Origin: Nitrosopumilus sp.
GTDB lineage: Archaea; Thermoproteota; Nitrososphaeria; Nitrososphaerales; Nitrosopumilaceae
Direction of reading: 5' to 3'
Length of the DNA: 64,000 nucleotides
NCBI GenBank assembly: GCA_963667665.2
Contig: OY763927.2
Location: 896,001-960,000, forward strand
Under the pieces are notes generated by a model. It did not search any database. It saw nothing but the letters and a program-made list of their open reading frames with translations, and was not told the DNA's origin. Made by a program: the position numbers and the translations under genes. Positions within the stretch are counted from its first letter, which is position 1, and every line of letters begins with the position of its first letter. Below are positions 3,822 through 27,942 of the stretch, in pieces.

Positions 3822-4175
3822 TTACTTACGTGTCCTACGCCTAGAAGCCCCAAATGAGCCAGGTCCAAATCCTAGAAATTCATTAATCTTTCCACCCAAA
3901 GTCTTTGGTTCAAATTTCTTTTTGTAATAATTTCCACTTGAAGTACTCTTATCCAAATTACAATCAATACATGCTGGAACTAGATTCCGAAGGTAATTTG
4001 ATCCTCCTTTTGCACGAGCTTTGCTGTGATCTATATGCCATGCTCCACGATTTCCATATTTACCACGATTTCCATATTTACCATAATTGACAAATGCTAA
4101 TTGTTTTTCACAATAATAACAATGCCTATTATTTTTATCATAGACATAATTGACTTCTTCATCAGTAAACGTCAT
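3822..4175 (-). CDS. HNH endonuclease (zinc-binding, McrA-like)
   Basis: CYYC...HIDH...GGSN...NLVPACIDCNLDK; contains an 18-bp in-frame tandem duplication (GKYGNR x2). Confidence 0.9.
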   Translation of the reverse strand: MTFTDEEVNYVYDKNNRHCYYCEKQLAFVNYGKYGNRGKYGNRGAWHIDHSKARAKGGSNYLRNLVPACIDCNLDKSTSSGNYYKKKFEPKTLGGKINEFLGFGPGSFGASRRRTRK

Positions 4176-4191
4176 AATTTATCAACTATAT

Positions 4192-4551
4192 TCAGTATGG
4201 AAAAGTTATTGTGATTTCTTTTCCTTCTGGTGTGACTTCATTACATTCAGGAGTATATTTCTTGTAAAGAGTATGTTCTATGTTTTTTTGATCTTCTTCA
4301 TTATTTACATAGCAATATCTAAAATACAATGCTTTGTCTCCTACTCTGCTTTTAATACATTTGTTCTCTTCATCATTTGATAGATGTTTTAATAATCTAG
4401 TTTCCAAATATTTTGTTCTACCAACATACACTGGTCTGTATCCGCCTTTTTTGAGACCCACACTGATCAGATAGTTTCCACCTATATCGTTAACAACTTT
4501 TTTGACAGTTTCTTCATAATAATCAAAAAGGCCATGCCACTCTAATTCCAT
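4192..4551 (-). CDS. GIY-YIG nuclease
   Basis: GNY..VYVGRT..LETRLLKH..E(HTL)..PECN pattern. Confidence 0.8.
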   Translation of the reverse strand: MELEWHGLFDYYEETVKKVVNDIGGNYLISVGLKKGGYRPVYVGRTKYLETRLLKHLSNDEENKCIKSRVGDKALYFRYCYVNNEEDQKNIEHTLYKKYTPECNEVTPEGKEITITFPY

Positions 4552-4561
4552 ATCATCACCA

Positions 4562-4828
4562 TCAACATTTCCCCTGCAAACGCTTCCGTTTGTAGATTAC
4601 ATCAGCTACTACTCTTCCATATGATCTTGCTTTTGGTTTTACTGTTACTGTTTTCCCCTGAATTTGCCTTGCTAGTTTTTGCTTCGCAGACAAATATCCT
4701 GGTTGTCCTTTTTCAGGACAGTTCAAACCAGTTACGCGAACATATTGAGAGTTATTTACTTTATTTCGTATCTTGAAAGTATCACCATCAATTACTTTCT
4801 GAACTTTTCTACGGTAAACCTTTTTCAT
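4562..4828 (-). CDS. Minimal thermonuclease (SNase/OB-fold) family protein
   Basis: KVIDGDTF, VRVTGLNCPE, YGRVVADV motifs. Confidence 0.85.
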   Translation of the reverse strand: MKKVYRRKVQKVIDGDTFKIRNKVNNSQYVRVTGLNCPEKGQPGYLSAKQKLARQIQGKTVTVKPKARSYGRVVADVIYKRKRLQGKC

Positions 4829-4947: not shown

Positions 4948-4972
4948 ATAGTCTTAATAATACTTAGACTAT
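4948..4972. promoter_or_regulatory. Palindromic operator ATAGTCT-N11-AGACTAT
   Basis: Dyad ends just before the ATG (4974) of the CARF-like regulator, in the divergent intergenic region. Confidence 0.65.
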
Positions 4973-7372: not shown

Positions 7373-7740
7373 TTAACAAGAATCTAAACTCATATCTCCA
7401 TTCTCATCAGTATTTACAGGTATTCGAATTTCCTTTCCAAAAAAATCCGTTATTGAATACTGTTTTGGAGTCACCATTCTAGCTGCACTTTGAATCAATG
7501 TCTTCCACTTGTCTTCTCCAAGAATGTTAATTCCTGCAATTTCAGCAGGAGTTTTACCTCCTAAACTGGTATGTGGCCTGAAATAGTTGTGATATAATTG
7601 ATATCCTGAAATCACGACTGAATCCTTCTTTTTTACGCCTCGTGTTGTCTTTTCTTTGTCTCGAAATTCACCGTTTAATCTCTCCATCATGTTGTTGTTG
7701 TGGTTTCCATCCATTCTAATGGTGTTAATGTGAATCGGAA
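7373..7740 (-). pseudogene. IS6-like DDE transposase C-terminal remnant (different lineage from 3011-3688)
   Basis: 'NNNMMERLNGEFRDKEKTTRGVKK..YHNYFRPHTSLGGKTPAEIAGI'. Confidence 0.8.
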
Positions 7741-7742
7741 TA

Positions 7743-8021
7743 TCATTTCCTTTTCCACGCATCAAATTCGATAATTTTCAGATTCTTGTCATTAGTTTTT
7801 TCCAAGTCCTTTTTTACTTTTTTGATTAATGTTGTTTTACCAGATCCCCATTCTCCATGAATTCCTATTGTAAAAGGAGGTTGTAATTTTTTATCAGTGA
7901 GAATGTTGGCAATTTGCTGAGAATACTTGACAAAATTAAATTGTAAATTCTCAATTTCAGGTTCATCTGTGATTAGTTTAAGTTTCTCAAGAATCTGTTG
8001 TTTATGATCACTTTCTGACAT
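7743..8021 (-). pseudogene. Truncated KAP-family P-loop NTPase
   Basis: 'PFTIGIHGEWGSGKTT..IIEFDAWK' followed by an abrupt stop at the transposase remnant. Confidence 0.8.
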
Positions 8022-8101: not shown

Positions 8102-9377
8102 GGTTCTGTAAAGTTGGTGGTTTACGATTGACTTTAACTAACCTGTCAAAGATCGCCTCATTCACCGTCACGCCTAAAAGTAGGACATTTGAGGAACTGA
8201 TCAGAAATGTACAAACAAGGATTTGCATTAATAGGAACGGCTGCATTTCTGCACATTATTACACAAATATTTCAATTTATTCAAGACCAAACTCTCGACA
8301 TTTTTCGAAATGAGTCCCACGTATTTAGCATCATTATTCCAATTATTATTGGAATAATAGGTATAGTGTTGATTTTCAAAGATAAATTTGGGTGGTTCAA
8401 AAATAAAGATAATAGAAAACAATATGATGCAAAAAAACTCAATGAGACTGTTTTCAGAAAATTAATGCGAGTAGAATGTATAGAAGATGAATTTTTCTTT
8501 ATAGAAAAATTTGGGTTTTGTATACCTACAAATAAAATGGCATTTACAAACAAAAGCGAATCTGATTATTTATTTTGGGCTGTAGGAAGTAGAGATGCCA
8601 GATACATTCACAAAGAATTTGACATTATTGAGAGAATTATCCCAAATTTAGAAACAGGAGAACAATATTTGAAGATAGAATATTATGAAATTTATAAACA
8701 ATGGATTCAAATTAAAAAAGATTTGGAAGAATTAAATCTAAAAAGAAAATCTTTCTTTAATTCAATATCCAAACAAATTGGTAAGAAATTAAAAAAACAT
8801 TTCAACTGTGAATCTAAATTACTTTTACATCCATTTGGAGATGAATGTGTATTTTTTGAAGAAAATACAGAAAAGATTTTGCCGTATCAATTCAATACAC
8901 ATTATCTTGAATTAGATAATCCTTGTGAAAATCAATACTATGTAACATATAGGAGAAATAGGATTCTGGGCAGTAATAAAAACACAGCAGATTTGGATGT
9001 AGTTAAAGATGTATTCACTACTATTACAAATGATAGAAGAATAATAGACAAAAAAATTAACTTTGATATGGATAAAATAAACTTAAACAAAAGAATCTCA
9101 GATTTTTGTGATCAATTGGAACATAAGGTTGTACATGATATTGACGCTCAAATTACTTCCTAAGATATTCACTCATAATAACACGAATAGTCTCAGATAC
9201 AGTCCAACAATTCTTCATTACATTCTTTTTCTAATGTTTTTACCATATCAACAGAGGAAAGAAACAAAACTGTACTCGAGGAAGTAGACCATTCCAAGTT
9301 CAAATCTGTTGAGATTTGCACAAAAATCAACCGAAATGAGACAAGGAGAAGATATCAACCGAGCATGTTACAGAACC
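8102..9377. mobile_element. Putative non-autonomous element with short inverted ends GGTTCTGTAA, carrying one passenger gene
   Basis: ggttctgtaa at 8102 and ttacagaacc ending at 9377; same terminal word as at 3698 and 15308; no target-site duplication seen. Confidence 0.5.
8207..9163 (+). CDS. Hypothetical protein with two N-terminal transmembrane segments
   Basis: 318-aa ORF; hydrophobic stretches near residues 5-24 and 40-56. Confidence 0.7.
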   Translation: MYKQGFALIGTAAFLHIITQIFQFIQDQTLDIFRNESHVFSIIIPIIIGIIGIVLIFKDKFGWFKNKDNRKQYDAKKLNETVFRKLMRVECIEDEFFFIEKFGFCIPTNKMAFTNKSESDYLFWAVGSRDARYIHKEFDIIERIIPNLETGEQYLKIEYYEIYKQWIQIKKDLEELNLKRKSFFNSISKQIGKKLKKHFNCESKLLLHPFGDECVFFEENTEKILPYQFNTHYLELDNPCENQYYVTYRRNRILGSNKNTADLDVVKDVFTTITNDRRIIDKKINFDMDKINLNKRISDFCDQLEHKVVHDIDAQITS

Positions 9378-9484: not shown

Positions 9485-10355
9485 TTTTCAATTGAGTGTT
9501 CAATTAGGTGGATGGGTGTTAAGTAGGGTGATAAATGATTATGGGAGTGGTTCGTGTCCTCTTTTGTATCCTGAGAATTTTCTATATTCGTAATCAGTTA
9601 AAGGAGTTTGACATCCACATTTACAAAATGTTTTCATGTTTTCAATTTACACTGCACATACAAAAAGATTAGGAATTCATCTTTAGCCAGCAACTGTCTT
9701 TTCCATTTGACAACCATGCAAATTTATGAAGTTTCAAAATATCATTAATCTCCCTCCAGATGTGTTTATCAATCCAATCCTTGGGAGTTATTTTGATAGA
9801 GTCACCCTTATTAACTATTGATACTTTTTTGATTCTCTTTCCAAGATTGTTTACAAAATTTGGTTTGCTTCCAGCTTGTTTTATCAAATCTAGATATTTG
9901 TCATCACCAAGATTCAAGTTAATGTTTGCAGCTTGTGCAGGAGTCTTACCATTTAGCCCTTGATGTGGTTTTACAAAGTTATGGTTGATTTTCAACAACT
10001 CTGAAAATGTCTGTGCTGATTCATCATTTCCCAATCCACGTCTAGCTTTGAGTTTTTCTCTTATCTCATTATGGTATCTCTCAATAGGCCTATTCACAAA
10101 GCCATCTTTGAGTGATTTTGTTTTGATATGTGCAGTTTTATTTTCAAACTCTTTTCTAATTGCTTCTTGGTAAGAGTTGAGACAATCAGTTAATACATAA
10201 TTTGGATTCTGTGATACTATCTTTTTGCCACTTGTGATAATCTTTCTTGCATCTGAAATTTTCCTTTTCTGTTGATTTGGGATATTTTTTTTGACAAAAC
10301 TTGAAGACAGAGTCAAATCTAACATTATTTCTGAAATTAGAATCACTACATTTTA
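9485..10355. repeat. 871-bp direct repeat, copy 2
   Basis: Matches 2827-3697. Confidence 0.95.
9669..10346 (-). pseudogene. IS6-like transposase C-terminal part (duplicate)
   Basis: Translation identical to 3011-3688. Confidence 0.8.
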
Positions 10356-12044: not shown

Positions 12045-15000
12045 CTAAACAACAAATATCTTAACTCCTATTTTTTCTTCTTCTGTAAGTGATTCATAAA
12101 CGTCTTGGATTTTTGGACTAATTGACCATACATGACACTCTTTGAATCCTAACTGTTTCCATTTTACCATATTTAGTTTGACATGACTTTTATGAGAATC
12201 GGACTCTGCGTTTGACTCTATTTCAACAGATATTGGAATTTCTTTTTCATAATCATAAGCTACAAAATCTGTTCGTAATTTGCCTTTCTTTACTTTTTGT
12301 GTAGCTACTGTGACAAAGTTTCCTTTTGAAACATAATGATCTGTTACCTTTTGAACCATCATTGGAATGTCTTTGGCACTTCCTACAGTCTCAGAAGAAT
12401 AATCAAATAATTGAGATTTTGTCTTATCTGTCAATGAATATACTCCCTTATGGCCTTCAGTTTTAGAAAGCATTTTTTTGTTTACCATGTTCTGCAGAAT
12501 GTCCTTAGACATGGTATCTCGATGAATTGTACCGCCTTTGAAGCTATCAACAATCTTTTGAAGTCCAAGTGGTGAATCTTTGAGAATACAACAAACCAAC
12601 CATTCATCTTCTGTTGGAGGCTCAAATGAGATATTCTTGAGCCATACATTGCTTTGAGAGGAATATTGCTTCATCAAAGAGTCGCCAACTACACCATGAC
12701 CGTATTTCTCCTTTTGAGATTCTATGAATTCATCTAGGAATTCCTTTGGCTGAGTATCTTTTTTAGGAAAAACTGGCCAAAACTGGATAGGTATTGGTTG
12801 GGTTTCCCCTGGAGCTGCAATTAATCTTACAGTCCAGGGATAGTATTCTTGTGTAGCTAGCTGCGATTCAATCTCTTTGGTATATGTTGGATCCCAAATT
12901 TGGCCAAATCTTTTACCATCTCTGCCAGAAACCTTTCCTACAAATTGAGTTCCTACATTTCCTGTAATAATTTCAAACAATTTATCATTAAGCTGAGTCG
13001 ATGTTTGATGTGCCAGTAACAATGATAGTTTGTATGATCTAGCTTGTGTCAACATTGATTCTATTATTGGCAGATTTGCAATATCTTGAAATTCATCTAA
13101 TGCCAAAACAACCTGTGTTCTGTCTTCTTCAATTTTGATTCTATCTGCTCTTTCTTGTATTACAAACCACAGCTTGATCACCAATGTTTGTTTAGCTAAA
13201 GTTATGATATGCTGAGGAATGTTTAGTGGTGATAATCTAATTATTGTGACATGTCCTGGTGAAATCAATTCATCAAAATTAATGGTTGATTCTCTGACAC
13301 AGAAAAGATGTCTCAGAATTGGGTCTGTTGCAAATTTCTCAACTCTATTCAATACTGGCTCATAAGCTTCTTTGGACATTCCTGCAATGGATTCAACTGC
13401 TTGTTGTAAAACAGCATCAGGCTTTCCTAATTCCTTGAACATTTTTGATAACATTTCTGTTCCATCTTCCTGGATAGAGATTATAATCTCATACAAATCA
13501 AGAAATGTTGGTTTGTCATTATTCAGATATAGATATTGTAGTAGTGTGTCTAGAATTCTTTTTAGTCTGACAAAAGAATCAGAGCCATTATACCAATATT
13601 CTATCATTGTCATAATATAACCAACATATTGTGAAACTACAGCTTCTCTGTTTTCTGGAAGATATGATGGAAGCTCCAAAATATTCATAGAGAATTTTGT
13701 TTGGATTGGATCCAAAAAGTGAACATTACCTTTTGCTAATGTTTCATTTTCGCATTGTCTTAGAAAATCATATGAATCAGATCCCTTTGGGTCAATTAGG
13801 ATGAAGGCATTTGGGAAATTTCCAGAAATATTTGAGAGCTCCAAATGTTTTGCAATTGCTCTGATTAGAGTGGTTTTTCCTGATTTGGTACCACCAACTG
13901 CATACATGTGAGTTGGAATATCCTCAGTGGATAGAACTATGCTCTTAGTTTCTGCTGAATGAATGAAATTACCATAGAAATTAGGTTCATCATAATTTAA
14001 CGTGGAATTTCTTGAATAATATCCAAGACAATAACCAATTTTGTTCATCTGTTGTTGTGGCATTGATTGTTTTCGGGTGATGGTTAGATGCTTTGTGGTG
14101 CTGTTAGGTAAATGAATGAACAATCCCAATTCACTTGGAATTAATAACAAAAATGGTGGCGATTTTCTTGTCTTATATTTTCCACTCCAAGATTTTGAAC
14201 AATAATCATTTACTATTTTTGGGAATTGATGTATAGGATCAGGAAGTAGTCTGTCTGGAAATATGTCTATCTTTTGTTTTTTTGTTTTCTCTGAATTTAT
14301 CTTGATGTATTGTGGATTTTTTTCTGAATAAAAATTATCATATTTGTAGATATTTTTGGTAACATGCTCAAAATTTGAGCGGATATTTTCAACTGGTAAG
14401 GATTCTATTTCTGAGAAATCTAAATCCAAATCAACATTTGATTCTACCAATCCTCTAACAGACAACAACACATGTGAGTCCTGAGTCTTCATAGTGCTGT
14501 GTTTTTCTAATACTTTGAAATTTGTTGCAAAGTCGTGAAACTTTTCTGGATGTTCTCGTCCTTCAGTTTTACTTGTGAATAGCATATCTGATGTACTGTA
14601 ATAGTCATTAGCTGTTACTGTCTTGTAATGGTTTTTGATATTAGTTGAATGAGATTGTAGTTCTTTCACAAAAGAATGGTTTTTGAATACTAGCTGAATC
14701 CATGCGTATTTTGAAAGCTGGATGGTATTTGCAATTTGTGTGATTAACAGATGTGCTTTTGCCTGATCAAAGACTGTTGTATAATGACCGTGCTTGTATC
14801 CTACATCAAATATTTGGTAATCCTTGTTTTTATCAAACCAGTCAGGAACCAAATAATCAATATCTTCAAAATCAATATTTTGATACATGTTGTAAAATGA
14901 CTGTTTTAGCTTGTCAAGATCGTGGGTTGATGCCACCAAAACTATGTGAAGTTGTTGTTTTTCTGAATCCCACCATAACTCCATTGAGCGAATTCCTGCA

Positions 15001-15161
15001 GAAATTATTCCCCCTACGTTGTTTATTGCGTTTTTTACGTCCATAGTTGTTGGAATTGAAATAAAACACGCCTTGAGTTCAGTATTTGTTCCTACAAATC
15101 TTTCTGTTTGGTCTAATAATCCTGGAATATTTTTAGAGTTTGAAAGCTTCCAATTAGCCAT
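12045..15161 (-). CDS. HerA/FtsK-superfamily (VirD4/TraD-like) ATPase with putative C-terminal wHTH and PD-(D/E)xK-like domains
   Basis: Walker A GGTKSGKT, 'LIDPKG', Walker B LALDEFQ, 'ARSYKLSLLLAHQ'; C-terminal 'RTDFVAYD..ISVEIE'. Confidence 0.8.
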   Translation of the reverse strand: MANWKLSNSKNIPGLLDQTERFVGTNTELKACFISIPTTMDVKNAINNVGGIISAGIRSMELWWDSEKQQLHIVLVASTHDLDKLKQSFYNMYQNIDFEDIDYLVPDWFDKNKDYQIFDVGYKHGHYTTVFDQAKAHLLITQIANTIQLSKYAWIQLVFKNHSFVKELQSHSTNIKNHYKTVTANDYYSTSDMLFTSKTEGREHPEKFHDFATNFKVLEKHSTMKTQDSHVLLSVRGLVESNVDLDLDFSEIESLPVENIRSNFEHVTKNIYKYDNFYSEKNPQYIKINSEKTKKQKIDIFPDRLLPDPIHQFPKIVNDYCSKSWSGKYKTRKSPPFLLLIPSELGLFIHLPNSTTKHLTITRKQSMPQQQMNKIGYCLGYYSRNSTLNYDEPNFYGNFIHSAETKSIVLSTEDIPTHMYAVGGTKSGKTTLIRAIAKHLELSNISGNFPNAFILIDPKGSDSYDFLRQCENETLAKGNVHFLDPIQTKFSMNILELPSYLPENREAVVSQYVGYIMTMIEYWYNGSDSFVRLKRILDTLLQYLYLNNDKPTFLDLYEIIISIQEDGTEMLSKMFKELGKPDAVLQQAVESIAGMSKEAYEPVLNRVEKFATDPILRHLFCVRESTINFDELISPGHVTIIRLSPLNIPQHIITLAKQTLVIKLWFVIQERADRIKIEEDRTQVVLALDEFQDIANLPIIESMLTQARSYKLSLLLAHQTSTQLNDKLFEIITGNVGTQFVGKVSGRDGKRFGQIWDPTYTKEIESQLATQEYYPWTVRLIAAPGETQPIPIQFWPVFPKKDTQPKEFLDEFIESQKEKYGHGVVGDSLMKQYSSQSNVWLKNISFEPPTEDEWLVCCILKDSPLGLQKIVDSFKGGTIHRDTMSKDILQNMVNKKMLSKTEGHKGVYSLTDKTKSQLFDYSSETVGSAKDIPMMVQKVTDHYVSKGNFVTVATQKVKKGKLRTDFVAYDYEKEIPISVEIESNAESDSHKSHVKLNMVKWKQLGFKECHVWSISPKIQDVYESLTEEEKIGVKIFVV

Positions 15162-15269: not shown

Positions 15270-15298
15270 TGGACGGGTCGGGATTTGAACCCGAGACC
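15270..15298 (-). other. 3' fragment of a tRNA (probably tRNA-Ala); att-site scar
   Basis: Reverse complement GGTCTCGGGTTCAAATCCCGACCCGTCCA gives a T-arm with GTTCAAAT plus an acceptor 3' strand with U70 and A73; no D or anticodon arm upstream. Confidence 0.75.
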
Positions 15299-15307: not shown

Positions 15308-15361
15308 GGTTCTGTAACATCACCGGTTGGATCTTCTTCGTGTAACACATCGGTTGGTTTT
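15308..15361 (+). mobile_element. ~50-bp mobile-element end or recombination site, copy 2 (left end of the 15.3-24.6 kb block)
   Basis: ggttctgtaacatcaccggttggatcttcttcgtgtaacacatcggttggtttt. Confidence 0.8.
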
Positions 15362-15522
15362 TGTGCAAATCTACCAAAGTTTGGTCATTAAATCTCCCAT
15401 CGGGTTTTGTCAGATCAGCAATACTCCCCACTTTTGTTTATAACTCTAATCTTAATTTTCAAAAAATCATAAATTTTTTGTTGACTGTTAATATTATATT
15501 CTATCAAATCGTATAGTATTAC

Positions 15523-18997: not shown

Positions 18998-19138
18998 CTA
19001 AAGTTCCACTGTATCTAAAATTTTATGACCAAATTCTTTTGCATTTTCAATTGTTAATTGTGAATCTCCATCTACATAAATTGCAGAAACAATTCCAAGT
19101 AAGACTATAATTCCAAATAAAGTAAGAATAATACTCAT
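18998..19138 (-). CDS. Small single-TM protein
   Basis: MSIILTLFGIIVLLGIVSAIY; ATG overlaps the upstream stop codon. Confidence 0.5.
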   Translation of the reverse strand: MSIILTLFGIIVLLGIVSAIYVDGDSQLTIENAKEFGHKILDTVEL

Positions 19139-19374
19139 TTCTTTCCTCCTTGTGCTCTTTCTAGTTTTCTTGAAAAACTTGTTACTCTTTCGTTCCAATA
19201 TGGGAACATATTTTCTGCATGTTTCCATCTACCATATTCTCGATTAGAGAGATTTTCTCGAATCTTTGAACCATATACATCAACTACTCTTTTGTAGTAA
19301 GCAGTCATTGCAATTGCCTTATTCAGATTTGGTAAGACATAGAATTGAATAATCAGCCACGAAAATAGGCTCAT
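19135..19374 (-). CDS. Hypothetical protein
   Basis: 79-aa ORF with overlapping start/stop coupling. Confidence 0.55.
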   Translation of the reverse strand: MSLFSWLIIQFYVLPNLNKAIAMTAYYKRVVDVYGSKIRENLSNREYGRWKHAENMFPYWNERVTSFSRKLERAQGGKK

Positions 19375-19610
19375 TTCATCTCCTCCAATGTTTTATCAGA
19401 GAATTTCATTTGATTTTTTGAGAGAGTTTCTTTCCTGTCATCTTTGACTTCCTCTTCATTAATTTCCTTGAATTCTAGTAACAATTTCATTCGAAATTGC
19501 TTCTCTAGCATTTGCATGCATGGAACTGTAAATTCTTGCATTTGCATGCATAGAGGACAAAAATAATAATCCTCAGTATCTATAGTCATTTCTTGTTTTA
19601 CCTTATTCAT
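19371..19610 (-). CDS. Hypothetical protein with CxxC
   Basis: 79-aa ORF, CPLC, coupled to neighbours. Confidence 0.55.
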   Translation of the reverse strand: MNKVKQEMTIDTEDYYFCPLCMQMQEFTVPCMQMLEKQFRMKLLLEFKEINEEEVKDDRKETLSKNQMKFSDKTLEEMK

Positions 19611-20367
19611 TTTCTTTTTCCTCCTTTGATTTTGGGATAGACAATGGTTTATCAGTTAATCCATTTCCATCCTCAAAGCATCTTGTCTGGTATTTACAAA
19701 ACTTGCAGAGTCCAGATGTTTCTCCATTTGGAATTTTGTCATGTGTCTTACCATCTTCAATTTCCTGAATTCTAGTCTTTATCCAGTCTGTTAGATCTCT
19801 TTTTTCTACTTTGTATGTTACAATATCAGACATGTCTGCATAGACAATGTTTAGATTCTCTACTGGTACGTATTCTGAAAACATTGTATCATAGCATTGT
19901 AGTTGCAAGATATGTTCGAGTTTTGGCAAGAATCCTTGCTTTATTTGCCATCTAACAAACTTTGTAGTTTTTAGATCAATGATTGTCTTTGTTTTCCAAT
20001 CATACATGTCTAGTCTTCCTGCTAGTGTTGCTACTTTTCCATTCTTTAATGGAACATGATACTCAATATCCATCTCACGCCATTTGTAAGCATATGTCAT
20101 GTTGTGAAGAAAATCACCACGAACAGTAGCCCACATTGATTCAAGTGTTGTATCTGCTAGAAGTTCTTCTTGAGATATTCCTAGTTGTTTGTATAGAGAT
20201 TTTCTTTGACATCCAACTAGTTCAGTCACAGAATATCTAGACTTCCAGTTTTTGGTAAATACACCGTTTCGTTTTTGTAAAAAATTAATGATTCCTTCTG
20301 GTGCATCTATTTCTTTTGCTAAAGCGATTTGGCCGCTACCCATTTGTTTTGAAATCTTTTGTTTCAT
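19603..20367 (-). CDS. Solo Cas4-like PD-(D/E)xK exonuclease with Fe-S cluster ligands
   Basis: SVTELVGCQRK, GRLD, IIDLKT, QLQCY, CKFCKYQTRC. Confidence 0.85.
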   Translation of the reverse strand: MKQKISKQMGSGQIALAKEIDAPEGIINFLQKRNGVFTKNWKSRYSVTELVGCQRKSLYKQLGISQEELLADTTLESMWATVRGDFLHNMTYAYKWREMDIEYHVPLKNGKVATLAGRLDMYDWKTKTIIDLKTTKFVRWQIKQGFLPKLEHILQLQCYDTMFSEYVPVENLNIVYADMSDIVTYKVEKRDLTDWIKTRIQEIEDGKTHDKIPNGETSGLCKFCKYQTRCFEDGNGLTDKPLSIPKSKEEKENE

Positions 20368-20397
20368 ACATTATATAATGAATGATGTTTAGTAGGT

Positions 20398-20432
20398 TTA
20401 AATTTGGATTATACAAATAATATTTGTACTAA
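20398..20432. promoter_or_regulatory. 35-bp site copy A (TATA + TACAAA-N5-TTTGTA dyad) upstream of the Cas4-like operon
   Basis: ttaaatttggattatacaaataatatttgtactaa; 32/35 identical to 23415-23449. Confidence 0.8.
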
Positions 20433-20447
20433 ATAGTATTTTTACAC

Positions 20448-21194
20448 CTAGATCGTTCCAATTCTAACTTGAGTATCAATCCACACTTGTAAAATCTCAA
20501 TAAACTCATAAACTGAAAAAATTACTAAATTCGCCAAAGTGATATAATTTCCTGGATGATCAATTCCCGATATTGGTTCTGAGATCTTTCTTTTTGCAAG
20601 ATCAAACTTAGCACTGAAAAAAGGTTCTTCTTTATGTGTTTGAAAATTTCTCATGTTATTTAGAACGTCTATAACTCCTCCATAATATTCATATAATTCA
20701 TTTTTTGCTTTTCTCCAATCCATACTTTGTTTATTGTCTTTTCTGCTTCTTGTTGTATATGGATTATTTTGTACATTTTGATAACGAATTTTAATATTTT
20801 CCCGATTAAATTTTTCTAAGAGATTATGCAAAGAATCATCTGGTTCCAATGCATGTTCACAAGAATTTTTCAAATAACCTTTGAATAATTTTAAAAACAT
20901 ATCTTTTAGTGCATGAGGAATATTTCTCAATAATTCATTTTCAATCCGCTGTAATTCATCGAAATCTTTAGGTATTGGAAAGTCTGTAGGAAAAATACTT
21001 GGAATAATACCTTGAGATAAATCATCATATGCCTTTTTAATATTTTCACTCACGTCTGGTGTAATTTCTTCAGTTGTTTTCATTAACTCAATAATTTTAT
21101 CATTTAATGATTCCCAGATCAAAGTTTGTGTGTCTTTTACTCTAACTCTTAAAATCAGATAACGATCAAAATTTGAAATTTCTTTGTTTGTCAA
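20448..21194 (-). CDS. Helical protein with RxxxxH motif (HEPN-like)
   Basis: 'LNNMRNFQTH'; starts immediately after the stop of the R-M-like gene. Confidence 0.55.
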   Translation of the reverse strand: MTNKEISNFDRYLILRVRVKDTQTLIWESLNDKIIELMKTTEEITPDVSENIKKAYDDLSQGIIPSIFPTDFPIPKDFDELQRIENELLRNIPHALKDMFLKLFKGYLKNSCEHALEPDDSLHNLLEKFNRENIKIRYQNVQNNPYTTRSRKDNKQSMDWRKAKNELYEYYGGVIDVLNNMRNFQTHKEEPFFSAKFDLAKRKISEPISGIDHPGNYITLANLVIFSVYEFIEILQVWIDTQVRIGTI

Positions 21195-23384
21195 TTATTC
21201 CTCATAATCAAATTTGAAAAGATTTTGTTTTTCAGCTTTTAGTTGTTTTTCAAGTTTTTCTATGTTGTTTAATTTATTATCTAATGCTACTAACTTTTTC
21301 TTTTGTTGATTAAGTGGAGTTTTAGGAATGATCAAAGAATTGAGATTGTCCATATTTATTCTAGAAATAAAATTTGCTTTGCTTTTTATTTTTAATTGTT
21401 CCTGCACACTTTCTGAATTGAGCACATATGCTAGAAATTTAGGAATGATTTTTTTTGGATCTGCTCTAATTACAGCTATTTGTGGACTGGGTAAAATTCC
21501 TACGTCTTTTTTACGTGTAATTCCTATTTTTCCAACTGTTCCCTGGCATGATAATAAAATATCATTTTCTTTGATTAAAAAATCAGAGTACTGTTTAGGA
21601 TATTGTATATAGATAGTTTTTGAAACCACATCCTTTATGAAACCATTTTCTATGTCTTGTATTCTAAGATATGGAGTGGGTGTCTTCTTACTATCTAGTT
21701 CAGAATCAACTGGAGATGGTTTCCCAAACCAAATTTTTCCTAATTTTTCTAATTCAATACCGTTTAGATTTTCGATAATCTTTTGTAATTCTGGTGTTTT
21801 GTCTGATACTGTCCATGTTTTAATCAAATCATTTTGATGTACATGAAAACTTTCAGAAGATGCTTTGAATGATTTTCCTTGTTCAAATTTTTGGAAATCA
21901 TTTTTAATTTTTCTTAAAACATTTGTCCTTAATTTTTTATCTTGAAATACATCTGTAGAAATATCCGACAAGAATACTCTGTTCCAATTTTCCTTACCTT
22001 CTTTTCTTTTGAAATTTAGAATTATCAAACTCATAGATATTCCTGTTTGAGGTAAAGCAATTCCTTGAGGAAATTGAATTATGGCTCTTAGATATCCTGG
22101 ATGTGCTAAAGAAAGACGAAGTGATTCTAAATTTTTCATTGCAAGAAAACTTGGAGGTACTAATAATGCAACTTTGGATAGGTTTTTTTGATTTTGTAAT
22201 TTTTTGATAATATATGCTAATTGTGTTCTTCCATAATTCCCATAAATTTTTCTTATTTCATCTCTTGATGAAATATCTGCACCAATTGGAGGAAAACAAA
22301 AAATGTACTCAAAATCGTTCATTTCCTTAGAATTTAAAAACAAATAATCTTTATTGACTAATTTTATTTCTTTTTCGTATAATTTAGAAATGACTTCTAA
22401 AATTTCACATACATCAGTATTTACTTCAACGCCTGCCAGATTTTTGGTTACATAATCATTTAATTGACTTTTAGTAAGTTTGTATTTTTTTTCAAATATC
22501 TCTGGTAAATCAAAAAGTGGACCATATCTTGCATATGGAATAAGTATTTTTTTATTTTTTAATGGATCAATTAAATCAAATATGAGATTGGATAGTTCTT
22601 TTGGATAATCAATCCAATCGTCTCTTAACAATAATTTTAACATTATTTTCCTAATTGCTTCTTTGTCTGATTTTAATAACGAATATTCTTTCACTGTATC
22701 AAACAATTCATAAAATTTTATTCTAGATAGTTTTTCTTCTGTAACTCTATGTGTACCAAACAAATTTGGAAATGTTCTCTTTCCTAATTCAAACAATTCA
22801 TTTATTTTTTCTTCTTTTGATTTGTTTGTGTCTTCTTCGAATAATTTTCCTTTGAATTCTGTTTCATCTAAAATTTTTAATGTAACAATTTGTAAAAATG
22901 GAGTATATTGATAAAAATCTCTTCTAACTATATCTGCAAGTATTTTTATTTGATAATTAGTTGCAGCAAGGGGTTTGAATTCATTTAATATTTTTTGAAT
23001 TTTATCAAAAAATTCCTTTTTTGGAATATCTTTGATTGGTAAAAGACTATTTCCCTTTAACTGAAATGTCTTTTTTTCTTTTCCATTATATAATATTCCA
23101 TATTCTGCTTTTGATTCTTTTAGATATTCTGAAAGTTGATGTTCAAAAAGTGGTAAAACCAAATTTCCTGTTTTTACTTCTACAATAATTCTTGGTTTTT
23201 TCTTTTCATCAAATACAACGACATTTGCTCTTTTTCCAGAATCTTCTCCAAGAAAGACTTCTCTTCCAATCTGTTTTGGAGGGAATCCATAGTCCTTCTT
23301 CAAAATCTTGATAATTTTTTCAACAAGTTCCACCTCCTTGATCATATCATATTCTTCATTATCGTTGTTTTTATTCATGTTCAT
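21195..23384 (-). CDS. Type I R-M-like fusion (HsdR-N-like nuclease + N6-MTase-like + one TRD) with degenerate catalytic motifs
   Basis: 'KRANVVVF..IIVEVK'; 'ILIPYARYG' at motif I; 'IFCFPPIG' at motif IV; TRD 'PYLRIQDIENG..ENDILLSCQGTVGK..IPKTPLNQQ'. Confidence 0.8.
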   Translation of the reverse strand: MNMNKNNDNEEYDMIKEVELVEKIIKILKKDYGFPPKQIGREVFLGEDSGKRANVVVFDEKKKPRIIVEVKTGNLVLPLFEHQLSEYLKESKAEYGILYNGKEKKTFQLKGNSLLPIKDIPKKEFFDKIQKILNEFKPLAATNYQIKILADIVRRDFYQYTPFLQIVTLKILDETEFKGKLFEEDTNKSKEEKINELFELGKRTFPNLFGTHRVTEEKLSRIKFYELFDTVKEYSLLKSDKEAIRKIMLKLLLRDDWIDYPKELSNLIFDLIDPLKNKKILIPYARYGPLFDLPEIFEKKYKLTKSQLNDYVTKNLAGVEVNTDVCEILEVISKLYEKEIKLVNKDYLFLNSKEMNDFEYIFCFPPIGADISSRDEIRKIYGNYGRTQLAYIIKKLQNQKNLSKVALLVPPSFLAMKNLESLRLSLAHPGYLRAIIQFPQGIALPQTGISMSLIILNFKRKEGKENWNRVFLSDISTDVFQDKKLRTNVLRKIKNDFQKFEQGKSFKASSESFHVHQNDLIKTWTVSDKTPELQKIIENLNGIELEKLGKIWFGKPSPVDSELDSKKTPTPYLRIQDIENGFIKDVVSKTIYIQYPKQYSDFLIKENDILLSCQGTVGKIGITRKKDVGILPSPQIAVIRADPKKIIPKFLAYVLNSESVQEQLKIKSKANFISRINMDNLNSLIIPKTPLNQQKKKLVALDNKLNNIEKLEKQLKAEKQNLFKFDYEE

Positions 23385-23414
23385 AATATGAAAAGAATCT
23401 AAAAAGCAATAATC

Positions 23415-23449
23415 TTAAATTTGGATAATACAAATATTTTTTGTACTAA
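23415..23449. promoter_or_regulatory. 35-bp site copy B in the divergent promoter between the R-M-like and CARF-like genes
   Basis: ttaaatttggataatacaaatattttttgtactaa; its last base is the A of the ATG. Confidence 0.85.
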
Positions 23450-24348
23450 TGGCAATATTCATAGCACCGATAGGAACTCACACTGAACATGTAAAGGGAT
23501 GGCTCAAAGAAGAATCTAGAGATGTAGATACTCTATGGCTGATTCATAGTAAAAAAAACATAAAGTTTGATTTTCCAAAGATTGCAAAAAAATTAGAAAA
23601 AGATCTAAATGCAGCATATCCACAAATCACAATAAAGAAAAAAATAATTGAAAGTGCATTTTCTGAAGACCCCACAATTGATGCTATACTTGAAATTATT
23701 CGCAAAGAGGAAGATGATGATTCCTCTATTATTCGAAAAGACTTTGTTGTAAATATCACAGGTGGTACTAACATTATTGCAGCAGCCACAATTCTTGCAG
23801 CAACATTTTATGGAACAAGAGCTCATTATGTTAAAGAACCACAAAAAGGTGATCCAAGGGGAACAAAATATGTTTACGAATTACCAATTCAACCAATAGG
23901 AATTGCTAGATTAAATCAAAATCAGTTAGATGTTTTAAAAATTATTGCAGACTCTACTTATGAAATAAATGATGTACCTAAAGGACTAGATAATAAAAAA
24001 ACACCTGGTTCTATTACACGATTTAAGTTACTCCAAAAACTTGGATGGGCAAAACCAGTAAAAGGATCAAAATTTCCAAGAAGAGAAGGAGGAACCAGAT
24101 TACTTGGAATCACAAAGAAATTAAGAGATGCTGGTTTAGTTGAACAAATAGATTTTATTGAATTTTATAAGGATCAAAATGAATCTAAAAAATCAAAAAT
24201 AGTATATCAGGATGGTTATGCAAAAAAAGTTGAAAATAAAAAATATGTTTCTGACTGGAAAATTTTAAGAAATGAAAGAGAAGTAAGATATGAGATAACT
24301 GCTGCAGGCAAACGTAAAGCAAGAGATGCCCTTATGTTTGATATTTAG
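23449..24348 (+). CDS. CARF-like (Csa3/DUF6293-like) + winged-HTH regulator
   Basis: 'IFIAPIGTH', 'LWLIHS', 'VVNITGGTNIIAAA..HYV', C-terminal 'KKLRDAGLVE..YEITAAGKR'. Confidence 0.75.
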   Translation: MAIFIAPIGTHTEHVKGWLKEESRDVDTLWLIHSKKNIKFDFPKIAKKLEKDLNAAYPQITIKKKIIESAFSEDPTIDAILEIIRKEEDDDSSIIRKDFVVNITGGTNIIAAATILAATFYGTRAHYVKEPQKGDPRGTKYVYELPIQPIGIARLNQNQLDVLKIIADSTYEINDVPKGLDNKKTPGSITRFKLLQKLGWAKPVKGSKFPRREGGTRLLGITKKLRDAGLVEQIDFIEFYKDQNESKKSKIVYQDGYAKKVENKKYVSDWKILRNEREVRYEITAAGKRKARDALMFDI

Positions 24349-24376
24349 TACAAAAAATATTTGTATTATCCAAATT
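24345..24376. promoter_or_regulatory. Site copy C, a perfect 32-bp inverted repeat of 23418-23449 overlapping the stop codon
   Basis: ttagtacaaaaaatatttgtattatccaaatt. Confidence 0.85.
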
Positions 24377-24580
24377 CAAAGATAACTTGTAGTTTCTCTA
24401 ACTATTTTCATGACACAAAAATGCCCTCAAAAGAAACGATGCGTGCAAGAGATATTTTGAGATGGTTTGTGGTGTTTGTTATTGGCTACTAAAAGAATGC
24501 AAATCCCAAAAAATTGCAATTCCTGGGGGCTACAAATTATCTAAATTAATTCAAAATGAAGGATTTGTGATAAAATACCC

Positions 24581-24629
24581 AAAACCAACCGATCTGTTAC
24601 ACGGAAAAGATCCCACCGGTGATGTTACA
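24581..24629 (-). mobile_element. ~50-bp mobile-element end or recombination site, copy 3 (inverted)
   Basis: Reverse complement tgtaacatcaccggtgggatcttttccgtgtaacagatcggttggtttt. Confidence 0.8.
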
Positions 24630-24726
24630 CTATGACAATTTTTCATTTAACCGTTTTGAACTGGATCCACTTTTGGGAATAGATCGCAGAGAATCAGGTG
24701 TGAAATTGAGGCTAGTTTATGGTCTT

Positions 24727-26412
24727 TTATTCATAAATTCTTCTGATTTTGGAACCACAATTAGGGCATTGCTCTTTTGTATGAATAATTGAGCAGTCAG
24801 CACAGCAAAACTCGATTGGGGTAGATGCTGAGACGTTTTGTGGTTTCTGTTTTATCTCTGTGAGTTCCTTTTTAATGTCTGCAAATTCTTCTTGTTGCTG
24901 TTTTAGGATTATTTCATGTCTTGCAAGGGCTGATTTTTGTGATTTTTCTTCGGATTCTTTTTGTTTTAGTGTTGCAAGTGCATCATTTAGTTCTGCCTTC
25001 AGAACATCAGAATCATCAGTGCCATTAACTATTGATGTGAATTTTGTAAATATGTTAAGTCTTTTTGATGCCTTGGAGTATTCTTTTCGCAGATTTTCAG
25101 GAAATAATTTTGCTTGTTTTTTGTAAGAGTTTTTTGGTTTATGTCCTACTGATTCTTCAATTACATCTTCTCTACACCCACAATCAGTTAACACAGATAC
25201 CAATACGTCACGAATTTCATGTGAATCCATGTTGTAGATATTTTTGCCATTAGCTGTTTTGCCTATTATTTTTAATATTCCTGCTCTTTGTGCAATTTTA
25301 TGGAAGGAGTGGCTCACCCATGAATCTGTAACGGGGTTTCCAAATTTATTTAGAAATATTGGATCTCCCATTTGGATATTCTGTTTTGTTTGTTTTTTTC
25401 TAAAATCCAAATATCTTTGTAACTCATAAACTGCATCTCTGTCTAGAAATCCAATATGCTTGTAATCTACTTTAATTCTTACAAGAGTAATTGGTACAGG
25501 GCACTTGTCTAAATCCCATGAATTGTGATTCTCCGAGCCAAAATATTTCACTAATTGTTCCCATGCCTCAAAATTGAATCTGTCCACCAAGGTTGTTCTA
25601 TCCAATCCTCTTTGAAATTTACACAAAAATAATGCTTTTTCCATCATTGATGGCTTTCCAACAGTTAAAAATTTCATCAAATCAGATAATGACATGCTTT
25701 GTTCTTCGATCTCGTTATTATGAGTAATTGTAGGATCATACTGAAAATTAATCTCCTGTTCATTTCTTTCAAAATATGATATTATTGCAGATTTGATTAG
25801 TGTTAACGAATTTGCTTTAAAATTGATATGTTTCTCATCAAGAAGATATTGCTTTATGATTCGTATGATTGTTTTTTGTTCTATAAATGGTCCTTCTAAT
25901 ATGTCAAGAATTTCTTCTACGTTTTGAAATTTTTTATATTCTGTTTTTTGTACAAATGTGTTTTTATTGGTTCTATGGAGTAATGATATTTTGAATCTTC
26001 TTTCATTGTTTTCAATGTCGGGGGATGTAAGCCATTTGTTAAAATTCCACAATTGACGCAAATATGCTTTTTTGGTACTATCTTCTGCAGTTTTTGCGTT
26101 CTTTTGCCTGTTTCCTCTTAATTGTGATTGCCAATATTGTATTGATTTTAGATCTGTAAACCAGGCAGGGATGTAATTCTCATCAACTCTTTCAATCATT
26201 TTATGATCTTTTGCAAATTTTATCATCTTTTGACTTTTAATGAGGGCATTTTTCTTTTCGTTCTTGCATATTTTTAGAAGAAATTTTTTATTATTTTCAA
26301 ATAATGAGTTTACTGAAACGGTCTCACCTGTTTGTGGAAAGTGAATTTCTTCAAATAATTGCGGAAATTCTAGATTATTTTTGACAACTTTGTACAGGTA
26401 TGACTGTTTCAC
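24727..26412 (-). CDS. Tyrosine recombinase/integrase with C-terminal coiled coil and zinc ribbon
   Basis: FQRGLD, RIKVD, HEIRD (HxxR), VGH...Y; CADC..CPNC. Confidence 0.85.
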   Translation of the reverse strand: MKQSYLYKVVKNNLEFPQLFEEIHFPQTGETVSVNSLFENNKKFLLKICKNEKKNALIKSQKMIKFAKDHKMIERVDENYIPAWFTDLKSIQYWQSQLRGNRQKNAKTAEDSTKKAYLRQLWNFNKWLTSPDIENNERRFKISLLHRTNKNTFVQKTEYKKFQNVEEILDILEGPFIEQKTIIRIIKQYLLDEKHINFKANSLTLIKSAIISYFERNEQEINFQYDPTITHNNEIEEQSMSLSDLMKFLTVGKPSMMEKALFLCKFQRGLDRTTLVDRFNFEAWEQLVKYFGSENHNSWDLDKCPVPITLVRIKVDYKHIGFLDRDAVYELQRYLDFRKKQTKQNIQMGDPIFLNKFGNPVTDSWVSHSFHKIAQRAGILKIIGKTANGKNIYNMDSHEIRDVLVSVLTDCGCREDVIEESVGHKPKNSYKKQAKLFPENLRKEYSKASKRLNIFTKFTSIVNGTDDSDVLKAELNDALATLKQKESEEKSQKSALARHEIILKQQQEEFADIKKELTEIKQKPQNVSASTPIEFCCADCSIIHTKEQCPNCGSKIRRIYE

Positions 26413-26487
26413 GTTGGTTTTTGGGAGTTTTCATAAATAAATATGCCGAAAACCAACCACGATAAGCTCATTAGTTAAATTAATTCT

Positions 26488-27942
26488 TTGAATTCTAGTT
26501 TGAGTAAAGAAGACAAAGGGATCACAGTTTCAAAAAAAGAAGATTTTAGTGAATGGTACACACAGATAGTTCTTAAAGCCAAACTTGCAGATTATGCACC
26601 AGTTAAAGGACTAATTGTTCTTAGACCTGATGGATATTCTATTTGGGAATCATTAAGAAACACATTTGATAAAAAATTTGCAAATAATGGAATCAGAAAT
26701 GGGTTTCTGCCTATTTTAATTCCAGAGTCATTGTTAAGTAAAGAGCAAAAACACTTTGCTGGATTTAATCCAGAAGTATTTTGGGTAACTCATTCAGGGA
26801 ATAATGAAATTGGAGACAGGCTTGCATTAAGACCTACATCTGAAACTTTAGCATACACAATGTATGCCAAATGGATTCAAAGTTGGAGAGATTTACCATT
26901 AAAGATTAATTTTTGGAATACAGCACTTAGAGCAGAGATCAAAGGAACAAAACCATTTCTTAGAACATCCGAATTTTTGTGGCAAGAAGGTCATACAGTA
27001 CATGCAACACAAGAAGAAGCGGAAGAAGAAGTGATGAAAATATTAGAGATTTATAAAAAAACTGTTGAAGAAGAGTTGGCAATTCCAGTAACAACAGGAA
27101 GGAAAAGTGAGAAAGAAAAGTTTGTAGGTGCAGTATACACAACCACTATGGAATCCATTATGCCAGATGGGAAGGCATTACAAATGGGCACATCACATTT
27201 TCTAGGACAAAATTTTTCAAAACCATTTGAAGTAAAATTTGCAGACAAAGACAATGTAGAGCATTTTGCATGGCAAACATCATGGGGAGTTTCTTGGAGA
27301 CTAATTGGTGCAATGATAATGATTCATGGTGATGATCAAGGTCTTGTGTTACCACCAAAGATAGCACCAATGCAAGTTGTAATTGTACCAATTTACAAAA
27401 ATGATGAAGGCAAAGATAAGGTATTACCCAAAGTAGAAGAAATTAGAAAAAATCTAGAGTCAAAAGAAATCAGAGTACATGTTGATGATAGAAGTGAATT
27501 ATCTCCAGGATACAAATTCAATGATTGGGAACTAAAAGGAGTTCCTATACGAATAGAGATAGGCCCTAAAGACATAGAAAAGAAGAGCATAGTTCTTGCA
27601 AAAAGATACAATCGTGAAAAGTCAAGTTTAGGTTTTTCTGAAATTGAAAAAATCCCCCCTATCTTAGATGAAATACAAAATGACATGTTAAAAACTGCTA
27701 GAGAACAAACGAAAGCAAATACCATAGATATTTCAGACTATACTGAATTCAAATCAAAAATTGAGAAAGGGGGTTTCTTTAGTGCTCCTTGGTGTGGAAA
27801 ATTAGAATGTGAGGAAAAAATTAAAGAGGAAACAGGTGCAGATATCAGAGTAATTCCATTTGGTAGTGAAAATACAGAGAAAAAATGCATGTATTGCCAA
27901 GAACAAAGTATTTCAATCCCGATTTTTGCGAGAGGATACTAA
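26488..27942 (+). CDS. proS: Proline--tRNA ligase
   Basis: DFSEWY, LRPTSET, FLRTSEFLWQEGHT, TSWGVSWR. Confidence 0.97.
   Translation: MNSSLSKEDKGITVSKKEDFSEWYTQIVLKAKLADYAPVKGLIVLRPDGYSIWESLRNTFDKKFANNGIRNGFLPILIPESLLSKEQKHFAGFNPEVFWVTHSGNNEIGDRLALRPTSETLAYTMYAKWIQSWRDLPLKINFWNTALRAEIKGTKPFLRTSEFLWQEGHTVHATQEEAEEEVMKILEIYKKTVEEELAIPVTTGRKSEKEKFVGAVYTTTMESIMPDGKALQMGTSHFLGQNFSKPFEVKFADKDNVEHFAWQTSWGVSWRLIGAMIMIHGDDQGLVLPPKIAPMQVVIVPIYKNDEGKDKVLPKVEEIRKNLESKEIRVHVDDRSELSPGYKFNDWELKGVPIRIEIGPKDIEKKSIVLAKRYNREKSSLGFSEIEKIPPILDEIQNDMLKTAREQTKANTIDISDYTEFKSKIEKGGFFSAPWCGKLECEEKIKEETGADIRVIPFGSENTEKKCMYCQEQSISIPIFARGY

Follow-up and report, generated by a model that had tools for sequence, protein, structure and literature searches.

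A CARF protein and its probable operators in Nitrosopumilus

This study deals with a 64,000-nt stretch of Nitrosopumilus sp. DNA (assembly GCA_963667665.2, contig OY763927.2, positions 896,001 to 960,000), which is referred to as the window and whose own coordinates are used throughout. Three copies of a 35-bp site, namely A (20398–20432), B (23415–23449) and C (24345–24379), surround a gene for a CARF protein with a winged-helix DNA-binding domain (CARF-wHTH), which we call REG. We consider it likely that the three sites are operator-promoter modules of REG, the product of the gene that they surround, and that they link a small cluster of nuclease and restriction genes to one switch. They probably make up a local regulon controlled by a Csa3-like CARF-wHTH protein that also regulates its own gene. 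An earlier note on this DNA, made from the letters alone, had offered two hypotheses, operators of the CARF-wHTH dimer or recombination sites of a nearby integrase, and the first of them is probably correct in its general form. Sequence comparison shows where the sites lie, that their geometry is fixed and that they are conserved, and it suggests that they vary together with the protein.

Three 35-bp sites frame the CARF gene

Sites A and B are direct repeats that are identical at 32 of 35 positions (91%), and they flank a pair of genes encoding a restriction-modification (R-M)-like and a HEPN-like protein. Sites B and C are inverted repeats of 35 nt with 34 complementary positions (97%), and 23418–23449 is the exact reverse complement of 24345–24376 (32/32). 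These two sites bracket the open reading frame (ORF) of REG (23449–24348): site B ends on the A of its ATG (23449), and site C begins one base 5' of its TAG stop (24346–24348). The direct repeats around the gene pair, the perfect 32-bp inverted pair and the precise bracketing of the CARF ORF had all been claimed in the earlier note and are confirmed here, as is the location of a TTAAA-like box about 30 bp from the start codons, for which we measured 31–34 nt (starts at 20367, 23384, 23449 and 24410).

Each site contains the 17-bp dyad TACAAA-N5-TTTGTA, located at 20412–20428 in A, at 23429–23445 in B and at 24349–24365 in C. Site A additionally comprises a TTAAA box and a TTTGGA element, site B a shared central TATA-like box (TTAAAT), and site C, the inverted copy of B that abuts the REG stop, a degenerate TATA-like box (TTCAAAG). 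The distance from the end of the dyad to the ATG amounts to 44 nt for the starts at 20367 (minus strand), 23384 (minus strand) and 24410 (plus strand), and to 3 nt for the REG ATG. Read outward, every site exhibits the same succession of dyad, 3 nt, TCCAAA (resembling a transcription factor B recognition element, BRE) or TACAAA, TATA-like box, 29 nt and ATG. Read toward REG, the TATA-like box is followed after 8 nt by the dyad, which ends 3 nt before the ATG. At site B, the rightward ATG of REG and the leftward ATG of the R-M-like gene (23384) are found 64 nt apart.

In the whole genome (1,891,871 bases in two contigs), exact copies of the dyad are present only at A, B and C, and the 35-mer has no match elsewhere, even if eight mismatches are allowed. 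Within the window, five matches with at most one mismatch compare with an expectation of 0.75, and none of 100 shuffles reaches five. There is no sign of regulon sites outside the island in which the genes reside, as the genome holds 39 dyads with at most one mismatch, compared with a mean of 34 and a maximum of 91 for scrambled versions.

Conservation of the dyad and its spacing in homologous loci

A sample of 400 other genomes of the same class contained REG homologs in 10 cases, and 80 of 105 confirmed loci from a metagenome scan were kept; the records of these related loci, retrieved via REG, stem from Nitrosopumilaceae and other Nitrososphaeria. With start codons fixed by alignment, 80 loci fall into 48 clusters at 90% protein identity, which we designate lineages, and into 19 clusters at 70%; the locus of the window was compared with 79 homologous ones. 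The test for a dyad before REG required two arms of six nucleotides and a centre 9.5–14.5 nt before the ATG. With its centre some 12 nt ahead of the start codon of REG, a perfect dyad occurs in 25 of the 48 lineages, and the number rises to 38 if one mismatch is allowed; of 1082 background ORF starts of this genome that were subjected to the same test, 18 and 195, respectively, have such a dyad. The corresponding numbers for clustering at 70% are 10 and 15 of 19. The occurrence of dyads beside homologous genes, which the earlier note had proposed to look for, is thereby documented.

In 17 of 37 lineages, the 130 nt that follow the REG stop contain a further copy of the dyad of the same locus, although roughly four of these copies are weak; this count leaves out nine clusters without a callable upstream dyad. 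The rate observed elsewhere in the same loci predicts 0.06 per search window. In the clade to which the analysed stretch belongs, the downstream dyad abuts the REG stop in the same way as site C. The nine genome loci harbor one to four dyads each (three or four in seven loci), which are nearly all intergenic and mostly located directly before hsdM, hsdR, Cas4-like genes or genes for 145-aa proteins.

The spacing is conserved as well. The end of the dyad lies 44–45 nt from the outward ATG in 14 of 20 cases (52, 63, 68, 105, 111 and 111 nt in the others) and 3–4 nt from the REG ATG in eight of eight. A divergent gene starts within 160 nt of REG in 30 of the 48 lineages, and the two ATGs are 64–66 nt apart in 19 of these 30, a spacing that is retained even in homologs of 28–35% identity. 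Together with the single central TATA-like box, this spacing fits bidirectional initiation from one shared TATA box.

REG is a Csa3-like protein predicted to form a CARF dimer

REG (P0001; 23449–24348, plus strand) comprises 299 aa with a Csa3-like CARF domain and a winged-helix DNA-binding domain, and is predicted to be a homodimer. The AlphaFold2 model (pLDDT 85.1, pTM 0.60) retrieved Csa3 as top match in Foldseek (6wxq_A, E 2.8e-7; 2wte_A with TM-scores of 0.48/0.63), and the full-length alignments to Csa3 span 245–304 columns. Among 500 matches counted, 105 have E values of 0.001 or lower, and the best 32 rows are all CARF proteins. PADLOC assigned REG to CARF3--CARF (77 bits, E 4.7e-22), and PF19810 is the precomputed assignment of its protein cluster. 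Homologs of REG score 28–54 bits for HFX_2341_N, with eight of nine genome homologs above the cut-off. REG represents a sister clade that diverged from DUF6293/HFX_2341 and not a canonical member of this family.

The CARF signature consists of a polar S/T after strand 1 and the motif [DN]x[ST]xxx[RK] after strand 4 (PMC4012209). REG exhibits T10/T12 after strand 1 and N102-I-T104-G-G-T107-N108 after strand 4. N102, T104, G105, G106 and T107 are invariant across 38 aligned REG homologs, and the N-I-T-G-G-T motif is located at the predicted dimer interface. The homodimer prediction reached a score of 0.66, compared with 0.01 for the best control, and passed a mark that is attained by 20 of 30 solved homomers and by one of 23 proteins solved as single chains. 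Contact agreement between the runs is at least 91% and the partner pLDDT at least 84, and the interface comprises residues 103–120 and 145–151. REG is hence predicted to dimerise via its CARF domain, although the pass may simply reflect its likeness to solved Csa3 dimers.

The C-terminal part of the model is composed of helices 157–168, 191–198 and 215–227, which are followed by beta strands. The homologs L022 and L023 have MarR/HTH_24 matches in the same region as the winged helix of REG, and Pfam yields no HTH match in REG itself. Relatives of REG were absent from viral contigs with the patterns used.

Suggestive co-variation of half-sites and recognition helix

The sequence of the half-sites varies by lineage and includes TACAAA/TTTGTA, CTACAA-N7-TTGTAG, TACGAA/TTCGTA, TCCAAA/TTTGGA and GTAAAA/TTTTAC, whereas the dyads within one locus agree with each other. 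Half-sites containing CG occur in the L016 group, L113/L099 and L019, which do not group together on the protein tree. A recognition helix starting with [TS]-L-N is present only in these three, and the helix of the others starts with R-L or N-L. The REG tree is a quick tree from which the fragmentary row L119 was dropped; only its topology was used, and the dyads were read separately. Co-variation of dyad and wHTH had been put forward as a check in the earlier note, and the concerted change of half-site and helix start in three lineages is suggestive of it, but it is not a proof.

Genes behind the sites

Site A, read leftward, lies before the ATG (20367) of P0084 (19603–20367, minus strand), a protein of 254 aa with matches in Pfam, PADLOC and NCBIfam. 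It scores 27.7 bits for Cas_Cas4 (cut-off 22.7) and 40 bits for PDDEXK_1 in Pfam, 50.9 bits for Cas4 in PADLOC, and 49.5 bits for the NCBIfam model cas4 TIGR00372, which is below the cut-off of 65. Four cysteines are present, one at the N-terminus and three in the arrangement C-x2-C-x5-C. These features characterise P0084 as an apparently solo Cas4-like nuclease and not as a CRISPR Cas4. No other partner of REG is as common as the Cas4-like gene: 29 of 72 related loci have one, although a large share of these loci are short contigs, and equivalents of site A precede it in L015 (12223), L019 (8249) and L021 (7362). Site A thus appears to act as promoter and operator for this gene.

The first 33 nt of Cas4-like genes are nearly the same as those of a 145-aa family that looks unrelated, ATGAAACAACAAaTTTCAaAaCAAATGGGTG (20337–20367 in reverse; L015 and L017–L020). 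The stretch is conserved at the DNA level across genera and holds a small dyad, TGAAA..TTTCA, both arms of which are altered in L017, as well as a second in-frame ATG. It could represent a shared N-terminal peptide or a second regulatory element.

Leftward of site B lies the gene of P0086 (21195–23384, minus strand), a fused R-M-like protein of 729 aa that was characterised by Pfam, PADLOC, NCBIfam and alignment. It is composed of an N-terminal PD-(D/E)XK domain (HSDR_N_2), a methyltransferase-like middle part and one target-recognition domain of the type I S type. The motif IV position (residues ~362–367) reads FPPI, an unusual motif, in the window, FPPL in L059 and QPPF in L015, and the fused protein may have lost its methyl-transfer activity in the window's clade. 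The R-M-like fusion is present in six of the 72 related loci, and type I hsdMSR in five of the nine genome loci. Directly 3' of the R-M-like gene and in the same direction follows P0085 (20448–21194, minus strand), a HEPN-like protein of 248 aa without match in Pfam, PADLOC or NCBIfam. Its motif R-[NH]-x3-H is invariant in six of six aligned homologs, and an Atlas search provided a weak HEPN_RiboL-PSP lead (15% share, rank 9). The labels "R-M-like" and "HEPN-like" of the earlier note accordingly hold as leads, given the domain matches of the former and the invariant motif of the latter.

Site C has no intact gene behind it. The region 24343–24406 is 81.5% identical over 65 nt to positions 2232–2296 of L054, which are located before hsdM, and hsdM is the next gene after the equivalent of site C in both L054 and L052 (REG 77% and 82% identical). 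Similarity to any related locus is absent past about 24407, and the position at which hsdM starts in the relatives is occupied by an open frame of 16 codons (24410–24460, plus strand), a remnant and not a gene. This comparison indicates that site C is the orphaned promoter-operator of a lost hsdM gene.

A proposed model of REG-dependent regulation

In the proposed model, one REG dimer would bind the 17-bp dyad, each hexamer being contacted by one of its two winged helices. At the promoter of REG itself (site B, rightward), the dyad fills the gap between the TATA-like box (−34 to −29) and the ATG, and because of this position bound REG would block RNA polymerase and thereby repress its own gene. 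In the outward direction, REG would be placed just upstream of a basal promoter, i.e. that of the Cas4-like gene at site A, that of the R-M-like and HEPN-like pair at site B and that of the now-lost hsdM operon at site C. At site B, where the dyad lies on the side of REG, the bound protein would close the promoter toward REG and leave or favour the outward direction from the single TATA-like box, so that the one-sided operator would bias the direction of a shared TATA box. Binding by REG, the sign of outward control and the sensing of a small ligand by the conserved pocket of the CARF domain are what we infer from the comparison. The operator part of the first hypothesis stands on the conserved positions and the lineage-specific dyads. 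Its second part, activation of the outward promoters, was not adopted, because the closest studied relatives, Csa3b and HFX_2341, repress from the same position.

Several observations weigh against this interpretation. Three exact dyads per genome are not extreme by themselves, as 29 scrambled palindromes of the same composition have a mean of 1.2 and a maximum of six exact genome copies; beyond chance are the clustering within 4 kb, the extent over 35 bp and the positions. No dyad was found before REG by the test used in 10 of the 48 lineages, the L067–L072 group has a Shine-Dalgarno-like AGGAGG in its place, and 20 of 37 lineages lack the site after the stop codon. The lineages are related, hence the counts overstate their independence, and 19 clusters are left at 70% identity. 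The co-variation of helix and half-site comes from three lineages and a quick tree. With respect to the protein, REG scores 27.5 bits for the Pfam family HFX_2341_N (cut-off 30), DUF6293_C of Pfam is not matched, and the NCBIfam Csa3 model TIGR01884 gives 17 bits (cut-off 60.2). The signature after strand 4 ends in N108 where R/K has been published; the N is also present in the close clade, and the position is occupied by K in L018, L020 and L021. Finally, another factor could bind the dyad. According to the report on Csa3a, the purified protein bound its palindrome non-specifically in vitro (PMC8699464), and by analogy a conserved palindrome beside a CARF-wHTH gene would not prove direct recognition.

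Alternative explanations

This precedent would also suit a scenario in which the dyads are bound by a different factor, or represent copies of a core promoter without a dedicated regulator, the CARF-wHTH gene being a mere neighbour; the repeat indeed spans the region from TATA box to start site, as a core promoter does. Such a coincidence is improbable, as the dyad tracks REG across genera down to homologs of 28–35% identity with lineage-specific half-sites, the exact dyad is absent from the rest of the genome, and helix and half-sites change together in three lineages. RNA elements, i.e. terminator or processing hairpins at gene ends, are the least probable explanation and can practically be dismissed. 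The dyad can form a hairpin of 6–9 bp, with folding energies of −7.3 kcal/mol (z −2.4) and −7.8 kcal/mol (z −2.7) for the two strands of site C, but sites A and B reach only −5.0 and −3.1 kcal/mol (z −1.1 and −0.7), the stems consist of A-T pairs except for one G-C pair, no terminator-like site was called at A, B or C, and the fixed distances are those to starts and not to stops.

The second hypothesis of the earlier note took the sites for recombination sites of the nearby integrase. In the form of a programmed switch, the neighbouring tyrosine recombinase would invert REG (B×C) or excise the R-M-like/HEPN-like pair (A×B). The perfect 32-bp inverted pair, the direct repeats A and B and an integrase-like gene 350 nt from site C are compatible with it, as are the divergent upstream position of the Cas4-like gene in L051, which has the form that an A×B deletion would leave, and its tandem downstream position in L055–L057. 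However, an integrase-family gene near REG is confined to the window (26.7 bits, cut-off 27.1) and L015, which corresponds to one of nine scanned genome loci, and the integrase-like gene has a candidate target of its own in a fourfold repeat of 49–62 bp. The far flanks of L051 and L055–L057 lack similarity and argue against simple inversions, the segment bracketed by B and C has no promoter of its own, and fixed dyad-to-start distances at one to four gene boundaries per locus, together with half-sites that change with the REG helix, would be needless for recombination sites. Two promoter modules that flank REG and face outward will be inverted relative to each other, so that the arrangement of B and C does not require recombination. 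Integrase-driven inversion or excision is therefore not supported, and we regard a programmed switch as very improbable. A less demanding proposal is that the operators are also passive joints, at which homologous recombination inserts, deletes or moves cassettes and has created the A/B duplication. L051 (REG 78% identical) consists of Cas4-like gene, site and REG with the same left flank as site A, and the window differs by an insertion at precisely the junction of this site with the REG ATG, which comprises the R-M-like/HEPN-like pair and a second site. The cargo order differs between loci (L018 vs L020; L051 vs L057) while each cargo keeps a site in front, and in close relatives the Cas4-like gene can flank REG on one side or the other and is invariably directed outward. 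Moreover, the Cas4-like protein is 82–86% identical to that of the window in loci from several genera whose REG is 35–78% identical, and about 50% identical in loci with a REG of 46–49%. These discordant identities imply different histories of the two genes, thereby suggesting a separate history or gene transfer of the Cas4-like nuclease. The discordance could, on the other hand, stem from rate differences and from gene transfer whose breakpoints lie elsewhere than at the sites, and the sequences between dyad and cargo ATG are mostly unrelated between loci, so that the joint is not sharply defined. A role of the operators as joints, including the origin of the A/B duplication, is hence possible but should be taken as tentative. 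The comparison of loci shows that modules have been rearranged at or near the sites in the course of evolution, which is likely to be a side-effect of conserved 35-bp modules and not their function.

A more far-reaching idea, which we consider speculative and rather doubtful, combines the operator reading with this mobility. The 35-bp module would serve as plug and junction box: cassettes would carry or acquire an operator at 44 nt, recombine there and become wired to one CARF sensor, which would turn the shared TATA box away from the sensor gene and toward the cargo. The signal would not come from Cas10 and might be provided, for example, by products of the controlled HEPN-like and Cas4-like nucleases.

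An iteron or replication origin was rejected, since the sites are palindromic, dispersed and located at gene starts and do not form tandem direct repeats. The k-mer contigs of four DNA runs (of 20 listed) over 19000–26500 break inside the repeats (the 32-bp repeat exceeds the k-mer) and are uninformative on rearrangement; pieces end at 23447 and at 24374 (24361 in one run), and the respective next pieces begin at 23420 and 24413. None of the joints reported for these runs connects A, B or C; they are located in the integrase region or have sides of 21–30 nt.

The 49–62-bp repeat is present in four copies at 3698–3759, 9312–9353 (reverse), 15308–15369 and 24581–24629 (reverse). The copy at 15308 follows a stretch resembling the 3' half of a tRNA, GGGTCGGGATTTGAACCCGAG (~15275–15295), and ARAGORN detected no tRNA in the window. 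One copy is located 98 nt from the 3' end of the integrase-like gene, and the inverted pair 15313–15361/24581–24629 (92%) frames a 9.2-kb segment with the whole regulon. These repeats are candidate attachment or target sites of the integrase.

The second CARF gene and further DUF6293 paralogs

A second CARF gene in the window encodes P0002 (4974–5708), a canonical DUF6293 protein with matches to both HFX_2341_N and DUF6293_C. BLASTP revealed no detectable similarity between REG and P0002 (E 0.53). As claimed in the earlier note, this gene has a different dyad just before its ATG: the perfect palindrome ATAGTCT-N11-AGACTAT (4948–4972) is present in a single copy and ends 1 nt before the start codon, and at least one match with up to two mismatches occurs in 18 of 100 shuffles. 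Besides REG, the genome contains four canonical DUF6293 paralogs, namely C1:124707, 192767 (with an in-frame TGA), 1047034 and the gene at 4974 of the window. Two of the paralogs outside the window share ACTAT-N4-ATAGT, which ends at the first ATG. The dyads of the paralogs seem to agree with the "general design" that the earlier note had envisaged.

Genomic setting of the regulon

The window is AT-rich (G+C ~27–35%) except for its first 4 kb. The region from 2 to 26 kb has the appearance of an integrated mobile or defence island, located between a high-G+C, repeat-bearing ORF and the gene for prolyl-tRNA synthetase. It harbors a protein of 1038 aa with HerA/DUF87 and TraG/VirD4-type coupling-protein signatures (12045–15161, minus strand), and small HNH, GIY-YIG and SNase-like genes at 3822–4828. 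An insertion sequence (IS) with a DDE_Tnp_IS240 transposase is present twice (2827–3126 and 9485–9784, with a reported identity of 100% over 300 nt; transposase ORFs at 3011–3688 and 9669–10346), and an rve_3 fragment (7373–7765) adjoins a KAP-NTPase fragment (7743–8021). The island is thus IS-ridden.

Outside this island, a unit of 225 nt at 604–1203 occurs in six overlapping copies at a spacing of 75 nt and hence represents a 75-nt tandem repeat. It is located in the sole high-G+C part of the window (54%), within an open-ended frame of 601 codons on the minus strand.

Neither Cas1 nor Cas10 (TIGR02577) was found in the genome with the models searched, and the single match to a CD-NTase (SMODS) has 22 bits and lies below the threshold. 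As far as tested, the genome is CRISPR-less.

Relation to known regulators and significance

The CARF proteins known so far are chiefly sensors of the cyclic oligoadenylates that type III CRISPR systems produce. Counterparts of REG are Csa3a and Csa3b of Sulfolobales, which share with it the two-domain fold, a dimeric state (predicted for REG) and palindromes directly upstream of BRE/TATA. The report on Csa3b describes a repressor whose footprints cover the palindrome TTTTC-N8-GAAAA directly upstream of BRE/TATA (PMC5389559), and that on Csa3a places its motif 12 bp upstream of the BRE/TATA of the cas4-cas1-cas2 cassette (PMC8699464). A Cas4-family gene is accordingly among the targets of Csa3a, and it would be the main one of REG. 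Unlike Csa3, REG is encoded in a genome without Cas1 and Cas10 by the models searched, and its targets would be solo Cas4-like, R-M and HEPN-like genes. The sequence of its dyad is different, it falls short of the Csa3 sequence model, and its gene is framed by its own sites with a divergent promoter that shares one TATA box within a fixed span of 64–66 nt. HFX_2341 of Haloferax mediterranei, on which the N-terminal Pfam family HFX_2341_N was founded and to which REG is related through its homologs above the cut-off, is described as a global repressor in vivo that is not linked to CRISPR in the genome (PMC11434293). The term "binding site" is absent from the main text of that article, and "motif" is confined to its reference list (PMC11434293). 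HFX_2341 is vertically inherited and global, whereas the REG clade is local and island-borne.

Among the regulators of bacterial defence, BrxR/CapW proteins combine a ligand-sensing WYL domain with a wHTH and are reported beside diverse bacterial defence systems (PMC9122601, PMC11662680); they differ from REG in their sensor, which is WYL and not CARF, and in being bacterial. With respect to the shared promoter, bidirectional transcription from one TATA box (BRE-TATA-BRE) with starts 49–50 bp apart has been described for Pyrococcus furiosus, the second transcript being mostly non-functional antisense RNA (PMC6640164). The gap of 64 nt between the two ATGs of the window and its central TTAAAT fit this layout if both leaders are short, but in contrast to P. 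furiosus there are genes in both directions and an operator on one side only.

The controller (C) proteins of bacterial R-M systems are encoded inside the R-M cluster, bind a palindromic operator in their own promoter, regulate themselves and control the restriction genes. These bacterial regulators are small, belong to the Xre type of HTH proteins and lack a sensor domain. By analogy, REG would work like a C protein without being a member of this group, since it is archaeal and has a sensor domain; an archaeal equivalent of the C proteins is not known to us, no search having been aimed at one. A description of this regulon, or of operators for the DUF6293/HFX_2341/PF19810 family, was not found in the literature, the 2020 CARF classification and all supplementary files, which may list the clade, lying outside the search.

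The REG clade is indicative of a CARF protein in archaea without detected Cas1 and Cas10 that appears to control R-M genes, a solo Cas4-like nuclease and a HEPN-like protein, and its operator, geometry and lineage-specific variants are now defined. This raises the questions of what a CRISPR-less CARF domain senses, how archaeal restriction systems are regulated, and whether a regulator can steer the direction of a shared archaeal TATA box.

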